DNA of 64,000 nucleotides from Acidobacteriota bacterium (GTDB lineage Bacteria; Acidobacteriota; Vicinamibacteria; Vicinamibacterales; UBA2999). The notes below the pieces were generated by a model. The model searched no databases, had not been told where the DNA came from, and was given only the letters and a program-made list of their open reading frames with translations. Where the stretch lies: positions 538 to 64,537 of the forward strand of contig JACPTI010000065.1 in assembly GCA_016192845.1 (NCBI GenBank), written 5' to 3'. The first letter of the stretch is position 1; every line of letters starts with the position of its first letter. A program made the position numbers and the translations under genes. This document shows, piece by piece, positions 1,860 to 24,793 of this stretch.

Positions 1860-4025
1860 TCAGCGCGTCGTCACGACCGTGGAGGCACCCGGCCGGTAGC
1901 GCCGTTCGAGGTTGGCCGCGATCGCCTCGTCGCTGAACCACACGGGCCGGAGCCTGTGCTCCGCGAACAGCCGGATTTGATCGCGGCTGTGCGGCGAGGC
2001 CAGATCGGTCGTCTGCCCGTACGCCAGCACCGACCAGGCCGTGACGGGACGCGTGAAGTGCACGAGCAGGATCCACGCATCGCCGAAGCCGGCAAGCGGC
2101 TCGTCCGGACTGCGGCGGCCGGCGACGCGCGCGCCGTCGGCGGCCTGCTCGAACGCGAGCACACGGAACACGCCGTACCGGCCCGGCGCGCCGTCGCCCG
2201 GCAGGTCGATGTCGCCCATGCGGAACCGATGGACGTCGCCCCACGCGACGCGCTCGCTGTTGTACTGCTGCCGTACGTCAGCCACCGCGCGCTCGAGCGC
2301 CGCGACCGCCGCCGCCCGATCGGCCAGCCCGCGCGGGGTCGTCATCGGCTCCGCCGGGCTCCACGGCGTTGCGAACGGGTCCGGATGCAGCGACAGCCAC
2401 CGGTCGAACAGCACGGCCCCGCGGCTGTCCGCGCGCGCCTGACGGTCCCACGCCGCCAGCGTCTCGACGCCGGCACGAAGCGCCTCCGTTGACGCGTCCA
2501 CCTGCTGCGCGGTCGCACGCAGCTCCGGGATCAGGCGATCGGCCATGCGCATGCGGCTCGAGAACTTGAGCGTCAGCAGGTCGCCAGGCGACAGCACTCC
2601 CGCCGCATCCACCGTCTCGAGCACCGCCTGCGCCCGGAGAGATAGCTCCCCACGCTCGATGTACGACGGATACCGCTCCGGCGTGATCGACGCCCGCAGC
2701 GTCGTCCACCAGGGCGGGTTGTTGGCGTTCTGAATGTAACCCCCGGGCGGATTGAGCAGCGACGGCAGATCGCGCAGCCGGTGCACGCCGCGCCAGAACA
2801 GCCGCCGCGTGTCCGCCGGCACGTCGAGGCTGTAGTCGAAGGCCGGATCCGGCCGCCGCGGCAGCCGCGCGTTCCACGCGTACAGGATGTTGCCCTCGAC
2901 GTCCGCATACGTGTAGTTGGAGGTCATCGTCAGCCGGCGGCCGAGAATGCTGCGGAATGCCTCGAGCGACTCGGCCTGCATCAGCTCGTAAAACCCTTCG
3001 TACTGCCGCCACCACTCGAGGTTCATCGAGCGGACGACGAAGACGCGATCGTCCGTGCGGTAGATGACTGGCCCGAGCGGCGTCTCCTCATACTCACGTG
3101 CGTCGACGAACACTGAGCCGTCCGGCTGCAACACTTCCACCGCCACCCGGCGCCGCTCGAACGAGCGCACGCGGCCGCCGTGCACGAACGCGTCGGTCCG
3201 CCCGGACGCGAGCGGCAGCGCGTAGATGTCCTCGAGATCGGGATCGTTGTTCGTCTGGACGTAGCCGAGCCGATCGTTGAAGCCGGCGCGCAGTACGGGG
3301 ATGCCGACGAGCGTCGATCCGTAGAAGTTCACCCGGCCGGGAATCGTGACGTGCGCCTCCCAGTAGAGCGACGACCACGACAGATGCGGATTGCCGAGCA
3401 GGATCGGCCGGCCGGAGGTCGTCTTCGCCGCCCCGAGCGCCACCGCGTTCGAGCCGGGCGCGTCGGCTGGAAGACCCTCCGCCGGCGCGGGCGCGACGGC
3501 AGCAGGCGCGTACTTCGCGATCAGATCGGCGGGCGGCCGGAGCGCCGCGAGAATCCCGAACATCCGCCCGTACGCGAGCGGATCCGACGCCTCCACGGTC
3601 GGCATCCACGCCGGCAGCGCGTCGCGGCGCTCCGTCACGTACTGATTGACCCCTGCCGCGAACCCCTGCAGCCACCGCCGGAACCGTCTGCCGGTCTCGT
3701 CCGCGAGCGCCCGCCGCGCGGCCGCGCGATTGTCGAGACGCCGCATCGCGAGATCGCTGTCGGCGTGCGCCGCGCCGAAATGGCGCGCCGCCTCCCCGCG
3801 CGCCTGCAGGTAGCGCCGGCCGATCTCGGACGCGTGATCCTCGGCCATCGCGTAGCCGAACGCGAAGCCGGCCGCCTCCTCGTCCTCGGCCAGGATGTGC
3901 GGAATGCCGAACGTGTCGCGGCGGATTTCGGCGCGGTCGGCCGCCGCGCGTGCGCCCAGGAGCGACGGACCGCTCGCGAGCAGGAGCAGGGCCGCCGCGA
4001 CGGCCGCCGCCAGAAGCGGTTTCAT
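1860..4025 (-). CDS. penicillin acylase family protein (Ntn hydrolase; AHL-acylase/PvdQ-like)
   Basis: ORF 1860..4184 trimmed to ATG 4025, which gives the signal peptide MKPLLAAAVAAALLLLASG. Nucleophile context APGSNAVALGAAKTTSGRPILLGNPHLSW. Length is typical of alpha/beta acylase precursors. Confidence 0.85.
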   Translation of the reverse strand: MKPLLAAAVAAALLLLASGPSLLGARAAADRAEIRRDTFGIPHILAEDEEAAGFAFGYAMAEDHASEIGRRYLQARGEAARHFGAAHADSDLAMRRLDNRAAARRALADETGRRFRRWLQGFAAGVNQYVTERRDALPAWMPTVEASDPLAYGRMFGILAALRPPADLIAKYAPAAVAPAPAEGLPADAPGSNAVALGAAKTTSGRPILLGNPHLSWSSLYWEAHVTIPGRVNFYGSTLVGIPVLRAGFNDRLGYVQTNNDPDLEDIYALPLASGRTDAFVHGGRVRSFERRRVAVEVLQPDGSVFVDAREYEETPLGPVIYRTDDRVFVVRSMNLEWWRQYEGFYELMQAESLEAFRSILGRRLTMTSNYTYADVEGNILYAWNARLPRRPDPAFDYSLDVPADTRRLFWRGVHRLRDLPSLLNPPGGYIQNANNPPWWTTLRASITPERYPSYIERGELSLRAQAVLETVDAAGVLSPGDLLTLKFSSRMRMADRLIPELRATAQQVDASTEALRAGVETLAAWDRQARADSRGAVLFDRWLSLHPDPFATPWSPAEPMTTPRGLADRAAAVAALERAVADVRQQYNSERVAWGDVHRFRMGDIDLPGDGAPGRYGVFRVLAFEQAADGARVAGRRSPDEPLAGFGDAWILLVHFTRPVTAWSVLAYGQTTDLASPHSRDQIRLFAEHRLRPVWFSDEAIAANLERRYRPGASTVVTTR

Positions 4026-4186
4026 AACCTGCCGCCCGCCGCTGCGAGAGGTGGTATGTCCTCCGTCAAACCGGCTCCGCTCGTCATGCATCCCGCTGCA
4101 CTCGAGCATCCGCTCTCGCTGCGCACTTACGCCTCCCACGGTTTGCCTCCGGACATACCACCTCTCGCCACGTCGCTGCGGCATGG

Positions 4187-4520
4187 GGCGTGATGCCTCC
4201 GAAGCAAACTGTAGTCAGCGGAAGCGCGCAGCGAGGCACGTTGTTCGCGTTGTGGCCGGATGGGAATCGAGCGGAGCCAGTTTGCGGAGGAGGTATCACG
4301 CCTCATGCCGAGCGGTTATGAAACCGGTTTTAGTCCCACGTGCCAGGTCTAAACCCACCGCCTTTCAGGCGGTCAGCTTTCAGCAGGTCCGATCTGATCG
4401 GCTGCATCGAGCTAACGAGCACGTGGGACTAGCGATGCGCGCGCCGTGGCGCGCGCCTATGAACGACTACCGCGTCGGGCTGCGACACCCGCGCGCGGGG
4501 CGACTTTCAGTCGCGCGCGG
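4187..4520. other. densely structured non-coding region (candidate ncRNA or stacked MITE-like elements)
   Basis: Helix 4187-4200/4289-4302 (14 bp, with one G/T position) is extended by 4204-4211/4278-4285 (8 bp). A perfect 13-bp helix 4331-4343/4419-4431 encloses hairpins 4357-4373 and 4382-4405. Further hairpins lie at 4437-4456 and 4489-4520. The 7-mer CTTTCAG occurs three times (4362, 4377, 4504), at the apex of the 4357-4373 and 4489-4520 hairpins. Confidence 0.3.
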
Positions 4521-4535
4521 AGTCTACCGGAACGT

Positions 4536-5498
4536 TCAACGCCAGTCGTCAATGACAAAGACGCCGGGCCGATTGTAGCCGGCGTCGTTCCCCCTGTGCA
4601 TGGCTACGCCGAGACGGTCGGTACGGAACCCGCGCGCCAGCAGTTGGCGATACGCCTCGTGCCGTGCAGTGTTCACGCCGGCCACGAGCCGCGGCAGCTC
4701 CTCGCGCGACGCCAGCGTGGCGCACGCGTCCAGCAGCCGGTCGAAACGTTCGCCCGCTCGCGGCCCGGGACGCGCCGCGCCGAACTTCACGTAGCACGAG
4801 CCGCTCCCGCCTTCCGTGCCGGCGCCATAATGACAGACGGCGAGCGCCGCGAGCCTGCCGTCATCCCACACGAGCACCGACTCGCCCAACCGGTGGGCCT
4901 CCACGGCCGCCATCTCATGCGTGACGTCCAGTCCGTCGTACACCGCGTCGGTCAGCTCGCGGCAGCGCGCCAGCATCGCCGGCTGCTCCGCCGGCGGAAT
5001 CTCGGACAACCGCGACCACTGCGGCGCACCGTCTGGCGCGGCGACCGGCCGCGACATGATCGCCGTCAGACATCCGGGCCAGAAGCCGAACTTCTGATAG
5101 AGCGACAGGTGCTTCGGACTGTGCGGAAACGTAAAGAGCCCCGCCTGCCGGATGCCCCACGCGGAGAAGCGGTCCATGATCGGCTCCATCAGCCGCGACG
5201 CGACCCCGCGATCCCACAGATCGGGGCGGACGGTGAGCGGCCCGAAGAAGCCGACGCTCCCCCAGTTGGCCGCGAAGTTCGATCCGACGACGTCGCCGCC
5301 GATGTCCGCCGCGAACGCAGCCGATGGGTCCGCGCGCCAGCGCGGGCGCACGTAGGCGATGTCGGCCATGAAGCGTGCCGGATCCGGCGCACCGAGGAAG
5401 GTGCCGAACGCGAGGCGCAGGACGCGATCGGCCGCGTCGAGATCGGCCTCACGGAGCGGACGTACGAGGATTGCGGCGTCGAGGATGCCCTCTGTCAT
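4536..5498 (-). CDS. GNAT-family N-acetyltransferase (two-domain)
   Basis: 320-aa ORF with an acetyl-CoA-binding-type segment (...TVRPDLWDRGVASRLMEPIM...) and a second GNAT-like half. No competing ORF with protein-like composition. Confidence 0.75.
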   Translation of the reverse strand: MTEGILDAAILVRPLREADLDAADRVLRLAFGTFLGAPDPARFMADIAYVRPRWRADPSAAFAADIGGDVVGSNFAANWGSVGFFGPLTVRPDLWDRGVASRLMEPIMDRFSAWGIRQAGLFTFPHSPKHLSLYQKFGFWPGCLTAIMSRPVAAPDGAPQWSRLSEIPPAEQPAMLARCRELTDAVYDGLDVTHEMAAVEAHRLGESVLVWDDGRLAALAVCHYGAGTEGGSGSCYVKFGAARPGPRAGERFDRLLDACATLASREELPRLVAGVNTARHEAYRQLLARGFRTDRLGVAMHRGNDAGYNRPGVFVIDDWR

Positions 5499-12218: not shown

Positions 12219-13151
12219 CTAGTCGGGTCGCCATGCGACCCGACCGTCGGCGAAGGCGGCGGGTACGGCTACGCGCAGCGCACCCGGGCGCGGCCGCGCC
12301 GCGAGCAGCACGCCGCCGACGTACGGCTCGCCGTCCAGGTGATACATCACCGGAGCGGCCGACGTCACCCGAATGTCGACGGCGGCGCGCATCGCCACCT
12401 CGGGCACGCGCGCCATCTGCCCGAGGAACACGCGCGGGACCTGCACGAGCGCCGCCAGCGGCGACCGCGCCGCCACGACCACGACGTCGAGCCGCCCGTC
12501 GGTCAGCCGCGCGGCGGGCGCGATGATGGCGCCGTTCCCGTACTGCCGCGCGTTGGCAATCGCGACGAGCAGCGCGCGAGTCCGGAGCGCGGCGCCGTCG
12601 GCGAATACCGTATGGTAGTCCGGCCTGTACGTGAACAGCTCCCGCGCGGTGACGGCGAGATACCGGACGAAGCCGCGCCGGACCCGGCGTGCGGACGCGA
12701 ACCGGTGCGCCACCCGCGCGTCGAGGCCGATGCCGGCGATGTTGAAGAAAAGCCGGCCGTCGAGCTCCCCGGCGTCGATCCAGCACTCGCGTCCGCCCAG
12801 CGCGACGTCGATCGCCCGCACCGGATCGAACGGAATGCGCAGCTCGCGCGCGAGCCCGTTGCCCGATCCGCTCGGGACGATGCCGAGCGTGACGTTGCGG
12901 AAGGCGAGTGACGAGCCGACCTCGTTGACCGTGCCGTCCCCGCCCCAGGCGATCACCGTCGAGGCCCCCTCGTCAACGGCCGCGGCGGCCAGCTCGCGCG
13001 CGTGGCCGGGGCGCTCGGTGACGAACACCTCCACCTCGAGGCCGCGGCCGGCGATCACCGAGCCGGCCAGTTCGGCACGTTCGCGCGCGGCGCCCTTCCG
13101 GCCGCCCGTTCCGGAGATCGGGTTGATGATGACGGCTACGCGTTTGGCCAC
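12219..13151 (-). CDS. diacylglycerol-kinase-family lipid kinase (YegS/BmrU-like)
   Basis: VAVIINPISGTGG...VIAWGGDGTVNEV...GIVPSGSGNGLAREL motifs. GTG start at 13151. Confidence 0.85.
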   Translation of the reverse strand: MAKRVAVIINPISGTGGRKGAARERAELAGSVIAGRGLEVEVFVTERPGHARELAAAAVDEGASTVIAWGGDGTVNEVGSSLAFRNVTLGIVPSGSGNGLARELRIPFDPVRAIDVALGGRECWIDAGELDGRLFFNIAGIGLDARVAHRFASARRVRRGFVRYLAVTARELFTYRPDYHTVFADGAALRTRALLVAIANARQYGNGAIIAPAARLTDGRLDVVVVAARSPLAALVQVPRVFLGQMARVPEVAMRAAVDIRVTSAAPVMYHLDGEPYVGGVLLAARPRPGALRVAVPAAFADGRVAWRPD

Positions 13152-22529: not shown

Positions 22530-24793
22530 CGCAGTCCCCATTGCCGCCGCAGCGTCCACTCGGCGGCGAGCAGCCCGACGAGCGCGACGAAGATCCAGGC
22601 GTTGTGCCACAGCTCCTCGAGCCGCGGCGCGCTCGGCGCGGCTGCCGCCGATTTCAGCAGCGACGACAGCATCGACGCCTGGCTGGCCGACACGTACGCC
22701 CCGCCGCTCGCGAGCGCGACACGCCGCAGCACCTCCTCGTTGAGCCGGGGGTCGGCCATCTCCAGGTCGGCGCCGCCCACGAGCACGGCCCGGGCGGCGC
22801 GGCCAAGCGGTGCCCCCTCCCGCGTCGCCGTGGCGCTCACGCGGTAGATGCCCGGCTCGTCGAAGCGCAGCTCGCCCGTGTAACGCCCCGTCTGCGGGTC
22901 GGCGAGCCTGGCAACCACCTCCTCGGTCGTGCCGCCGGGGCGCGCGATGGAGAGCCGCACGTCGGCGTCGACGATCGGTGCGAACGCGTCGCTGCGGACG
23001 TCCACCGTCATCGCCGCGCCCATGCCCGGCGCAAGCCCGGAAAGCGGCGCCACGTCCACGGGATCGGGCGCCGAGGCGGATACCCACCGGACCGCCTGGC
23101 GCCAGAAGAGCTCGTGGGTGCGATCGGTGGACGGCAGTTGCATCCGCCAGCGCCATGACGCCTCGCCGGTAAACACCATCGAGCGGCCCTGTCCGTAGCG
23201 CTGGACAGCCACGAGCGGCCGCGGGCCGTCGGGAGCATGGACGAGCGCCAGCGCCTGCGCGCCCGGGCGGAGCGCACCCAGCGCGGCCACGCCCACCAGC
23301 GGCGGTACGGCGCGCCAGCGTTGCTCCAGAGTGTCTGCGGCGTCGATCCGCATCACCGGGTGCACCTGGCCTTCGTCCGTGAGGCTCACCGCCAGCCGCG
23401 ACTCGACGCGACTCGACGCGCGCATGACGCCGCTGCCGCGCTCGGTGAGGCCGACCGGCAGCACCGGTTCGAGAGGGGTCCCGGCAAACCCCTGCTGGAC
23501 GAACGACTTCGCGCCGAGCACGAGCAGGCCGCCGCCGCGATCGTCCACAAACGTCGCCAGCATGTCGAGCTGCGCCCGCGACAGCGCATCCGCCTCGACA
23601 TTGGCCAGGATGATCGCGTCGTACTCGTAGAGCGCGGAGCGCTCCTGCGGGAATCCGGTGGTCAGGCGCGCCGCGCGGCGTTCGGTCGCCTGCACGTAGT
23701 AGGTGGAGGACCCGCGCGCGTCTCGGCCCTTCCGGACGACGGAGTCGACCTCGATGCCCGGGTCGCCGGCGAGCGCGCGCTTGATGAACGCGTGTTCGAA
23801 GCCGGGCGCCCCTTCGATCATCAGCACGCGGCGGCGACGGCCCGGCGGCTCCACAAGCACGCTGCGGCGGTTGTTCTCGAGCGCAAGCTCGCCCGCCGCC
23901 GACGGAATCTCCACCGTGTAGAGCGTCGGGGTTTCCCGCGACGGCGACACCGTAAACACCGCGCGCACGGGGCCGCCGCCAGCTTCCGGCGTGACGTGGC
24001 GCAGGTCGATCGGCCGGCCGTTCTCCAGCACGCGCAGATCGAACGGCGCCGCGCTCGCACCCGCATTGGCACCCCACCGCGCAGGCGTGCGCGGTGGGGA
24101 CCCCGCATTGCCACGACTGATAGCGGTGACTGTGATGTCGATGGACGAATCCGCATGCGCCATCTCGCCGGCCGAGACATCGAGCACCTCGAAGTCGGCC
24201 GGCGGCTGCGGAGCGCCCACGCCGATGGCGTACACGGGAACGGCGGCCGCATCGGCGGCGGCCGCCGGCTCCTCGGTCCCGGTGTCGCCGCCGTCCGAGA
24301 TCACCACGACGGCGGCCACGCGCCGCTGCCGGTAGCGCTCACGCACGGCGCGGAGTGCGCCCGACAGATCGCTCCGCCGCGCGTCGGCGGCGAGCGTTCT
24401 CGTCTCCGTCACCGGCTCGAGCGCGTCGCCGAACGACCAGAGCTCGCTGCGGAAGCGGCGGTCGAGCGCAGGCCGGACGTAGCCTTCGAGCAGGTCGCGC
24501 GCGACGACGATGCGGCTCGCGCCGTCCATGTCGGCAAGCCGCATGCTTCGCGAGACGTCGATGAGCACGGGGACGACGGCATCGGTGGCGACATCCGGCG
24601 GCACGACGCGAACCGGGCGCAGGAGGCAGGCGACGAGCACGAGGAGCACGAGCGCCCGCAGGCCGGCCAGCACGGCACGCCGCCGCGGCGACAGCGGCAC
24701 GATGGCGCCGGCGTAGAACCCCCACGCGACCGCCACGATGGCGGCGGCCAGCAGGAGGAGCGCCCACCAGGGATACGAGATGGCGAACTGCAT
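22526..24793 (-). CDS. membrane protein: N-terminal double TM + vWA-like + class-I glutamine-amidotransferase-like fold + C-terminal TM
   Basis: MQFAISYPWWALLLLAAAIVAV..., VLIDVSRSM...VVVISDGGDTG (vWA MIDAS-like), YDAIILANVEADALS...GGGLLVLG (GATase1-like), C-terminal WIFVALVGLLAAEW. Confidence 0.75.
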   Translation of the reverse strand: MQFAISYPWWALLLLAAAIVAVAWGFYAGAIVPLSPRRRAVLAGLRALVLLVLVACLLRPVRVVPPDVATDAVVPVLIDVSRSMRLADMDGASRIVVARDLLEGYVRPALDRRFRSELWSFGDALEPVTETRTLAADARRSDLSGALRAVRERYRQRRVAAVVVISDGGDTGTEEPAAAADAAAVPVYAIGVGAPQPPADFEVLDVSAGEMAHADSSIDITVTAISRGNAGSPPRTPARWGANAGASAAPFDLRVLENGRPIDLRHVTPEAGGGPVRAVFTVSPSRETPTLYTVEIPSAAGELALENNRRSVLVEPPGRRRRVLMIEGAPGFEHAFIKRALAGDPGIEVDSVVRKGRDARGSSTYYVQATERRAARLTTGFPQERSALYEYDAIILANVEADALSRAQLDMLATFVDDRGGGLLVLGAKSFVQQGFAGTPLEPVLPVGLTERGSGVMRASSRVESRLAVSLTDEGQVHPVMRIDAADTLEQRWRAVPPLVGVAALGALRPGAQALALVHAPDGPRPLVAVQRYGQGRSMVFTGEASWRWRMQLPSTDRTHELFWRQAVRWVSASAPDPVDVAPLSGLAPGMGAAMTVDVRSDAFAPIVDADVRLSIARPGGTTEEVVARLADPQTGRYTGELRFDEPGIYRVSATATREGAPLGRAARAVLVGGADLEMADPRLNEEVLRRVALASGGAYVSASQASMLSSLLKSAAAAPSAPRLEELWHNAWIFVALVGLLAAEWTLRRQWGLR
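24060..24110. repeat. REP-like palindrome family A (CACCCCAYCGCGC..GCGCGRTGGGGACCCCG) with 9-bp flanking direct repeat, in frame in a CDS
   Basis: CCCGCATTG (24060-24068), then the 33-nt palindromic core GCACCCCACCGCGCAGGCGTGCGCGGTGGGGAC, then CCCGCATTG (24102-24110). Period is 42 nt = 14 codons. Translated as GNAG-SPPRTPARWGANAG. Confidence 0.8.

Follow-up and report, generated by a model that had tools for sequence, protein, structure and literature searches.

A structured intergenic spacer in an Acidobacteriota genome very probably consists of two adjacent mobile repeats, one of them an IS200-derived element

Introduction

What fills the long, strongly folding spacer between an acylase gene and a GNAT gene on a contig of an Acidobacteriota bacterium of the order Vicinamibacterales (GenBank assembly GCA_016192845.1, contig JACPTI010000065.1)? 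The window analyzed here comprises 64,000 nucleotides of that contig, and the spacer under study (window positions 4026 to 4535, 510 nt) lies between two minus-strand genes. A first-pass annotation, made from the letters alone, had described about 330 nt of the spacer as nested long helices and had proposed either one large structured RNA or stacked MITEs (transposable elements of the miniature inverted-repeat type). Comparison with the organism's own draft genome (G000; 4.5 Mb in 153 contigs, 67.8% G+C, 92% complete) and with related genomes indicated that the spacer very probably consists of two adjacent nonautonomous mobile repeats: element B, a palindrome-associated transposable element (PATE) derived from an IS200-type insertion sequence (IS), and element A, an inverted pair of long-hairpin units.

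Results

The spacer splits into two dispersed repeat families

All of the helices listed in the first-pass annotation were recovered, by inspection of the sequence and with a repeat finder, at the positions given in Table 1, and the three occurrences of the 7-mer CTTTCAG (4362, 4377, and 4504) and the two flanking genes (acylase start at 4025 and GNAT stop at 4536, by Pfam) were likewise as described. The 14-bp and 8-bp helices around a 3x3 loop, called unit (a), proved to sit in 33-nt arms that are 85% complementary. The structure in the proposed 330 nt is thus real, but the structured stretch is larger, since a further long hairpin (unit A1 in Table 1) extends it to the entire spacer. When folded as single-stranded DNA (ssDNA), window positions 4329 to 4539 gave -67.6 kcal/mol (z = -6.9; equaled by 0 of 200 shuffles) and positions 4012 to 4329 gave -93.3 kcal/mol (z = -8.3; equaled by 0 of 100 shuffles).

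In a BLAST comparison with the own draft genome, the spacer split into two independent dispersed families, A and B, which together fill it. At the outer edges, the acylase ATG (4023 to 4025) lies within the terminal repeat of element A, and the GNAT stop codon (4536 to 4538) lies within the last four bases of element B. The suggestion of stacked MITEs therefore held in one respect, in that two dispersed, multicopy repeats stand side by side and units (a) and (b) of the first-pass annotation each recur elsewhere in the genome, but not in another, in that B is no classical MITE: neither terminal inverted repeats nor target duplications were found.

Element B (window 4329 to 4529) matched G000 in 33 BLAST pieces, all but 2 of them at 97.8 to 100% identity, which correspond to about 20 to 25 copies in the draft; this near-identity points to recent spread. 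Many of the pieces end at contig ends, as would be expected for a repeat that disrupts short-read assembly. In the contigs of four metagenome runs, summed depth, which is not a copy number, was about 100 to 250 times that of the flanking genes over B and about 6 to 15 times over A. In the contigs of the four DNA runs, no joint skipping the whole window copy of B or of A was found; variants with internal deletions were present, as were loose ends that agree with other copies, and nothing else.

Among 301 genomes sampled from the order, 16 had matches to B, one of them being G000, whereas the same-genus genome G001, which is 100% complete, had none. A scan of one genome per prokaryotic species with the left-end pattern of B returned 74 stretches, 72 of which carried labels of Acidobacteriota lineages. 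The records L086, L089, L164, L175, L209, and L216 carry these acidobacterial repeats, and the labels among them include Bifidobacteriaceae, Gemmatimonadaceae, Candidatus Kuenenia, beta proteobacterium, and Gammaproteobacteria; mislabeled or misbinned contigs seem more likely here than transfer. Separately, the minus strand of contig C141 of G000 (about 12,825 to 12,845) has a 19-nt stretch identical to TTTAG and the 14 nt with which B begins; it is too long for chance and lies in a coding frame (...LTFSPTCQEV...) without further element sequence.

Element B joins the two ends of an IS200-type element

Alignment of B copies with unrelated flanks gave a consensus that begins TTTAG-TCCCACGTGCC and ends GGCGGTAGTCGTTCAA, with a length of about 224 nt including TTTAG and about 219 nt without this target sequence. 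The two tips, TCCCACGTGCC... and ...GGTAGTCGTTCAA, do not form an inverted repeat. Near both ends, subterminal hairpins with the core ACCGCC-TTTCA-GGCGGT occur on one strand and in one loop orientation. In the predicted fold of the full-length consensus, an internal complement pairs with the left tip to close a first domain, another internal complement does likewise with the right tip to close a last one, and a G+C hairpin stands between the two. In the window copy, ...GAGTCTACCG-GAACGTTCAA takes the place of the ...GAGTCTACCGCCTTTCAGGCGGTAGTCGTTCAA of other copies; it has thus lost the loop and right arm of the last hairpin. Because this hairpin, between the right guide and the cleavage site, is broken, the window copy is probably a decayed and immobile fossil. 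Deletion variants, including a 57-nt minimal form, also exist.

The origin of these ends was indicated by 21 left ends that had no right end downstream by the first pattern. Six of the 21 run into a tnpA open reading frame (ORF) with the hallmarks of IS200 transposases, which is intact in records L147, L156, L159, and L163, frameshifted in L127, and truncated in L162; the ORF of L156 matched the Pfam family Y1_Tnp with an E value of 1e-44. These tnpA-bearing elements, of about 615 to 620 bp and from other Acidobacteriota, end in GCGAC-TTTCA-GTCGC ... CTACCG[G/C]C-TTT(C)A-G[C/G]CGGTAG ... TTCAA, the same arrangement as in B, and are homologous to B over its first ~55 nt and last ~60 nt. Since its ends match those of these parents, B amounts to the two ends of an IS200-group element, left and right, joined to each other with some sequence of its own between them. 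PATEs have been defined as elements that lack terminal inverted repeats, carry near-terminal palindromes, cause no target duplication, and are too short to encode a transposase (PMC3119063). B fits this definition and on its sequence was accordingly assigned as a PATE of the IS200/IS605 family.

Target site of element B

The pentanucleotide TTTAG stands before 19 of 20 left ends of B in G000, and TTGAG stands before the remaining one. In the IS200/IS605 family, the left end always inserts 3' of a word of four or five nucleotides, which later rounds of transposition require as well (PMC5027513). In G000, TTTAG also forms the loop of many repetitive extragenic palindromic (REP) hairpins of the form GT[A/G]GCGTCCG[G/C]C-TTNAG-[G/C]CGGAC, a genome-wide family (e.g., C16, 84368 to 84400) of 178 copies, of which 89 bear the GT[A/G]G tag; they are often arranged as inverted doublets. 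Copies of this REP flank a Y1 gene resembling REP-associated tyrosine transposases (RAYTs) on both sides (C134, 3858 to 4476). The 65 intact REPs with a TTTAG loop constitute unfilled look-alike sites. In three G000 copies (C16, C26, and C82) and in one copy from genome G037 (L064), B splits the REP sequence GTCCG[G/C]C-TTTAG-[G/C]CGGAC exactly after TTTAG; around C82 and L064, both REP halves are present and nothing is duplicated. Three further right ends of B are directly followed by CCGGACC. With intact REPs serving as look-alike empty sites, TTTAG is part of the target, and the element proper runs from TCCCACG to GTTCAA. The target-site duplications that the first-pass annotation had proposed as a test for MITEs are not expected of such an IS200-type derivative, and none was found at B copies.

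On both strands of G000, TTTAG occurs 412 times, compared with about 2,000 occurrences expected by rough arithmetic from base composition, and REP loops make up about a sixth of all TTTAG sites. Many B copies lie at gene ends. The TTTAG target accounts for the copies of B in REP loops and, as it contains the reverse complement of the stop codon TAA, for those at TAA stop codons; it implies a bias to TAA-ending genes. A second RAYT-like Y1 gene of G000 (C80, 47968 to 48879) carries a different palindromic repeat, of the GGGGTCAGACCCCGGTGA type, on both flanks.

Guide sequences and cleavage sites

In IS608, cleavage sites are recognized by pairing with four bases located 5' of each hairpin; the left hairpin has its site, TTAC, 19 nt away on the 5' side, the right hairpin has its site, TCAA, 10 nt away on the 3' side, and guide bases 1 and 2 pair with site bases 2 and 1, respectively (PMC3201880). 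From the pair TTAC/AAAG, the fourth guide base would in addition pair with the fourth site base. The right guide of IS608 is GAAT. For 49 distinct elements, the tetranucleotide lying two positions 5' of each hairpin's six-base core was taken as the guide. At the left, 32 of 34 ends have a guide AA[N]C that fits TTAG; at the right, the guide fits its site in 34 of 43 ends. Among the right ends, four co-varying site/guide pairs were found: TCAA/GA[G/A]T, TCAG/GAAC, TTAG/AAAC, and TAAG/TAAC. For the TCAG and TTAG types, the position of the end was set independently by two copies with different flanks. Judged by these pairs, B obeys the guide/cleavage-site pairing code of IS608.

By analogy with the known mechanism of the family, TnpA supplied in trans would bind both hairpins on the single-stranded top strand (lagging-strand template) and would cut after TTAG at the left and after TCAA at the right. 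A single-stranded circle would thereby be released and then pasted 3' of another TTTAG, including those in the single-stranded loops of host REP hairpins.

Conserved structure and added helices of element B

Among 33 full-length B copies from about a dozen genomes, 11 of 51 predicted consensus pairs were changed on both sides. Column pair 9:98 of the left tip helix was C-G in 18 copies, A-U in 8, and G-C in 6; the left hairpin varied between ACCGCC/GGCGGT and ACCGGC/GCCGGT (column pair 33:41), and the right-tip helix varied between GAACGAC/GTCGTTC and GAAGAAAC/GTTTCTTC (columns 153-167/242-255). The G+C hairpin, unit (c) of the first-pass annotation, has a wholly different sequence in other genomes and is still kept as a hairpin. 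The stretches complementary to the tips have no counterpart in the parents, where the best match was 8 to 10 of 13 positions, compared with 12 to 13 of 13 in B. The added helices seem to have been kept through compensatory changes in subfamilies that belong to different acidobacterial families. The alignment contained 97 G-U cells and 3 A-C cells on the top strand; since most of this excess lies in a handful of columns, within helices that had themselves been predicted on the top strand, it gives only a hint that this strand is the folding one.

The upkeep of helices that are absent from the parent IS would be explained if B, while mobile, also acted after transcription, its PATE-specific helices stabilizing, terminating, or processing read-through mRNA, or acting as a small RNA. 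The tip helices and the G+C hairpin, missing from the parents, are kept by covariation or through full sequence turnover across genome-specific subfamilies, and both the 97 to 3 ratio of G-U to A-C cells and the position of many copies at gene ends, owing to the TAA complement in the target, agree with such a role. It is nevertheless unlikely: the G-U excess stems from a few columns predicted on that strand, top-strand ssDNA gives the same signal, and a scan of window positions 3900 to 4700 found its only terminator-like site in A and none in B.

Element A is a low-copy family of paired long hairpins

Element A (window 4026 to 4327) was found at eight other loci in G000 with 73 to 95% identity (C38, 88%; C60, 93%; C101, 89%; C123, 93%; C48, 95%; C43, about 73% at each of two loci; and C2, 73%), and it matches itself on the opposite strand at 67%. 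Homology among the copies extends to about window position 4012, and GGTTTCATAAC is common to the left ends of the copies on C38, C60, and C101. When G000 and 40 relatives were searched, A was present in 5 of the 41 genomes (G000 and four others), with 71 to 77% identity. When the species collection was scanned with a pattern for A, 26 stretches matched, consisting of 20 true units and 6 unrelated sequences (about 14 expected by a rough chance estimate). The true units were labeled Vicinamibacterales or Acidobacteria, apart from one labeled Gammaproteobacteria and one labeled Bifidobacteriaceae. There are 1 to 10 copies per genome, and units occur singly, as inverted pairs, and in truncated form.

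In an alignment of 19 A units, 18 of 37 predicted pairs were changed on both sides, and the inner stem GCAAACCG/CGGTTTGC and the core GAGCGGAGCC were invariant, which suggests that the hairpin is maintained by selection. G-U pairs fall on the strand reading GCAAACCGTAG; the single position G4195/T4294, for which the first-pass annotation had allowed a G-U pair only on the plus strand, belongs to this family-wide pattern. A is best described as a REPIN- or ERIC-like (REP doublet- or enterobacterial repetitive intergenic consensus-like) long-hairpin repeat, the second, low-copy dispersed family of the spacer. The repeats flanking both RAYT genes differ in sequence from A, and no A copy lies on those contigs. 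A solo A arm in genome G014, 2.1 kb from a unit, has no transposase between it and the unit.

The same conservation could be attributed to A units that do not move, that is, to a small multicopy family of structured RNA genes or protein-binding sites in the Vicinamibacterales. The lack of variation in the core and inner stem next to strong covariation in the outer stem (18 of 37 pairs), the confinement of G-U pairs to one strand, the 1 to 10 copies per genome, and the lack of a detected parent transposon would all suit genes or binding sites. Their patchy distribution (5 of 41 genomes), their occurrence as single, inverted-paired, and truncated units that are themselves hit by another repeat, and the lack of an Rfam match make a nonmobile family very unlikely.

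A REP-type palindrome of about 35 nt (GGGGTCCCCACGGCGC...GCGCCGTGGGGTGCC) was observed at the same site of the A unit in four independent copies (G000 contigs C60, ~440 to 485, and C48, ~2745 to 2795; and records L216 and L231), and the same family occurs at window positions 24060 to 24110.

Weighing the two-repeat interpretation

Several observations weigh against the interpretation of the spacer as two mobile repeats or limit its reach. At the window locus and at three other B loci, no clean orthologous empty site was found in three same-genus genomes, synteny being broken or rearranged, and the boundary of B was drawn from the REP look-alike sites and from copies with unrelated flanks. Regarding the pairing code, the left cleavage site was fixed by the search pattern, the fourth pairing is a reading made here rather than a quoted statement, and the guide rule is broken by 9 of 43 right ends, among them short deletion variants from which the guide is missing. 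The covariation is evidence of folding in a single strand, but it cannot separate ssDNA from RNA. As for A, no transposon with A arms was found in the five genomes scanned, no clear target duplication was seen at the copies inspected, and a classical MITE would not be expected to combine an invariant inner stem with a variable outer one.

The transposase of B provides a further point of this kind. Searches with the L156 TnpA found nothing in genomes G000, G007, G201 (100% complete), and G314, and in G037 the single match was a C-terminal piece of 47 residues at the start of a contig. By Pfam, the only Y1 genes in G000 are the two RAYT-like genes flanked by their own REPs; this absence of tnpA is bounded by the 92% completeness of G000 and by the poor assembly of repeats. 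The transposase source of B would accordingly be either unassembled or foreign.

Mobilization of B by such a domesticated host Y1 enzyme, a RAYT, instead of an IS200 TnpA would account for copies in G000 that are 98 to 100% identical when no IS200 tnpA was found in G000 or in three other genomes that bear B. In addition, the REP hairpins of the RAYTs share a similar stem and the loop C-TT(C/T)A-G with B, and the sequence flanking the RAYT gene on C134, GTCCGGC-TTTAG-CCGGAC, resembles ACCGCC-TTTCA-GGCGGT of B. This explanation is highly improbable all the same, as the ends of B are homologous to those of true IS200-type elements and obey their guide code, no CTTTCAG-type hairpin was found near either RAYT-like gene of G000, and drafts often lose insertion sequences, G037 having a tnpA fragment at a contig start. 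Other candidate partners of B were rejected: an IS110-family recombinase gave no hit in G000, and TnpB gave one subthreshold domain hit there (19 bits; cutoff, 26.3). Derivation of B from a group II intron, considered because of a domain-V/VI-like fold at a contig end and two interrupted copies, was likewise rejected, the intron being cargo inserted into B.

The idea that the ~330 nt or the whole spacer forms a single large structured noncoding RNA specific to this locus has practically nothing left in its favor beyond very stable predicted folds and helices that covary among related sequences, given that Rfam yielded only four matches at E values up to 10, all far below the gathering score (the best, c4-a1b1, with 18.5 bits against 46.7 for the window region, and full-length B copies no better), that two unrelated repeat families meet in the stretch, either of which also occurs by itself at other places and in unrelated contexts, that the spacer is absent from same-genus genomes, and that dispersed copies of both halves refute the RNA by the first-pass annotation's own standard, which had named such copies as a sign of simple repeat DNA.

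Gene ends and nesting at the locus

When B (4334 to 4539) was removed in silico, ...GGTTTTAG joined CGCCAGTCG..., and the GNAT gene then ended in Asp-Asp-Trp-Arg-TAA, its stop codon being part of CTAAA (TTTAG read on the other strand). In the window as it stands, B included, the gene ends in Asp-Asp-Trp-Arg-TGA (last bases at 4536 to 4541), the stop codon being provided by the terminal TTCAA of B. The GNAT orthologue of G001 stops at the same codon position. Because TAA was exchanged for TGA and the last residue is still Arg, the insertion of B was silent for the protein. At the other edge of the spacer, the acylase ATG and the first four or five codons (ATG AAA CCG CTT CTG) lie inside the terminal repeat of A (window 4012 to 4029) and are shared with other A copies; element A may have supplied the present start of the acylase gene. 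The locus is rearranged within the genus, genome G003 (L060, 2160 to 2440) being without most of the GNAT gene and the whole spacer and genome G001 (L059, 1300 to 1560) being without the acylase gene.

Two other B copies are interrupted at the equivalent of window position 4389/4390 by 30 nt followed by a group II intron (Table 1); loose ends at 4389 were also present in the metagenome contigs. Only the first ~70 nt and the last ~124 nt of this intron were assembled, and they match both ends of an intron in the relative G031 (Rfam group-II-D1D4-6, 177 bits), which encloses a 479-residue ORF. The 30-nt leader includes a small hairpin and is absent from intron-free B copies; in other genomes, too, the related intron has about 16 to 28 conserved nt of this leader upstream of it. 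A repeat of about 55 nt, rich in CGGAAC/CGAAC words, adjoins several REP and B copies (e.g., C148, 170 to 230, in G000); it occurs at tens of places in 13 of the 24 genomes compared from the same family and in 3 of the 16 from other families.

Table 1. Features of the spacer and its surroundings, in window coordinates unless a contig or record is named
Feature	Position	Strand	Evidence or remark
Penicillin-amidase family (acylase) gene	1860-4025	-	Pfam
Element A, inverted (head-to-head) pair of related ~130-nt hairpin units plus terminal inverted repeats	about 4012-4328		Own-genome copies
Left terminal inverted repeat of A, contains acylase ATG	4014-4029		Partner 4314-4329; 16 nt, 94% complementary
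Unit A1, long hairpin, arms 4037-4073/4139-4175, core opposite to A2	4037-4175	-	Arms 37 nt, 81% complementary; reverse-complement alignment with A2-type units
Unit A2, earlier unit (a), outer stem 4179-4211/4278-4310	4179-4310	+	Repeat finder; 19-unit alignment
A2 inner 8-bp stem GCAAACTG/CAGTTTGC	4204-4211/4278-4285	+	Invariant, like core GAGCGGAGCC
Right terminal inverted repeat of A, abuts TTTAG of B	4314-4329		Repeat finder; copies
TTTAG, target pentanucleotide of B, flanking DNA and not part of B; left cleavage site C_L = TTAG 4330-4333	4329-4333	+	19 of 20 left ends; split REPs
Element B, assigned as PATE, top strand = window plus strand, without right-end hairpin	4334-4539	+	BLAST copies; ends common to tnpA elements; alignment
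Left arm of 13-bp tip helix (left tip with internal complement), PATE specific	4331-4343	+	100% complementary; column pair 9:98 covaries
AAAC, putative left guide G_L	4351-4354	+	AA[N]C register in 32 of 34 left ends; complements TTAG by IS608 rule
Left subterminal hairpin IP_L, putative transposase-binding hairpin; core ACCGCC-TTTCA-GGCGGT 4357-4373	4355-4376	+	Core and loop as in both ends of the parents
Internal hairpin; group II intron site in two other copies	4382-4405	+	Copy alignments
Right arm of 13-bp tip helix	4419-4431	+	Repeat finder; covariation
G+C-rich hairpin, earlier unit (c), arms 4437-4445/4448-4456	4437-4456	+	Repeat finder; alignments
GAACGACTACCGC, internal complement of right tip; partner GCGGTAGTCGTTC deleted in window copy	4462-4474	+	13 of 13 complementary in full-length copy
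Hairpin, earlier unit (d), arms 4489-4497/4512-4520, apex GCGAC-TTTCA-GTCGC; right end inherited from parent IS	4489-4520	+	Parents have GCCGAC-TTTCA-GTCGG at same place
GAGT, putative right guide G_R	4520-4523	+	GA[G/A]T pairs with end TCAA
Remnant, left arm of right subterminal hairpin IP_R	4524-4529	+	Consensus ...GAGTCTACCGCCTTTCAGGCGGTAGTCGTTCAA, window ...GAGTCTACCGGAACGTTCAA
TCAA, right cleavage site C_R, last bases of B; 4536-4538 = GNAT TGA stop (minus strand)	4536-4539	+	Sequence; alignment
GNAT gene	4536-5498	-	Pfam
Group II intron in B copies, locations	G000: C137, 18664-18785; C148, 1-164; C53, 29761-30025; C30, 37775-38009. Record L057, 930-2811

Discussion

The spacer can be removed from the list of candidate new large RNAs, and with it a false lead. 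What takes its place is an unusually complete dissection, from sequence only, of an IS200-type miniature element in Acidobacteriota, in which four co-varying guide/cleavage pairs carry the recognition code of IS608 to a distant branch by natural variation alone. The locus also displays layered nesting, with a group II intron in B, B in REP loops, and a second REP in A. In practical terms, these repeats break short-read assemblies of the lineage and have hairpins that could pass for RNA genes.

A bolder interpretation, that the added helices of B are a functional innovation (as a self-folding strand or a transcribed RNA) and that the A units form a new class of hairpin, is distinctly unlikely. 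A self-folding single strand could present or mask both cleavage sites and so allow spread with little or no cognate transposase, perhaps with a borrowed REP enzyme. Alternatively, a transcribed structured RNA could act at the gene ends where the TTTAG target places B. The A units, in which the core is invariant and the stem co-varies, might likewise represent a new class of hairpin elements served by a further enzyme.

Among the papers listed in a literature search, none dealt with such elements in Acidobacteriota, which is no proof of absence. The closest known systems come from other lineages. PATEs were defined in Haloquadratum walsbyi (PMC3119063), and one has also been described in Halanaerobium (PMC7290912). 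Like those elements, B is too short for a protein, lacks terminal inverted repeats and target duplications, carries near-terminal palindromes like those of a tnpA-bearing element, and forms a homogeneous family (>90% identical) within a genome, into copies of which other mobile elements insert. Unlike the PATEs as described there, B has as its parent a tnpA-only IS200-group element of Acidobacteriota and not one of the IS605/IS1341 type, and it has added internal complements to both tips as well as modular C-TTTCA-G hairpins.

IS608 and ISDra2 are the studied models of single-strand transposition in the IS200/IS605 family (PMC3201880, PMC5027513). B resembles both in its insertion 3' of a fixed word of 4 to 5 nt that stays outside the element and in its subterminal hairpins on the top strand, and it resembles IS608 in its right cleavage site, TCAA, and in guide tetranucleotides that pair with the cleavage sites. 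The distance from cleavage site to hairpin is about 21 nt on the left and about 8 nt on the right in B, compared with 19 and 10 nt, respectively, in IS608. B differs from what is described for IS608 in its target (TTTAG instead of TTAC), in its hairpin sequences, in having no transposase gene in the element or in the assembly, and in being known here from sequence alone.

ERIC sequences, also called intergenic repeat units (IRUs), and similar elements are imperfect-palindrome repeats of bacteria of about 120 to 130 bp. The small mobile repeats SMR-A of Haloquadratum are about 110 bp long (PMC3119063). Element A is like ERIC/IRU and SMR-A in size, in its long imperfect palindrome, in the lack of an evident target duplication, in its association with mobile elements, and in having no known transposase; the likeness is one of architecture, and A differs from them as an inverted pair with extra terminal repeats. 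A also resembles REP/REPIN sequences in having two inverted arms around a spacer, a hairpin of about 130 nt, and a dispersed intergenic family (PMC3116915, PMC3337134, PMC3733652). Unlike REPINs as portrayed in those accounts, it has arms that are not copies of the REPs flanking either RAYT and a large, conserved, asymmetric core, and no RAYT link was found. The host REPs targeted by B, in turn, are like those of REP/RAYT systems, with a GT[A/G]G tag and a palindrome flanking a Y1 gene (PMC3116915, PMC3337134, PMC3733652). Taken together, these comparisons place B as a further PATE of the IS200/IS605 family and A as a hairpin repeat of a known general kind.

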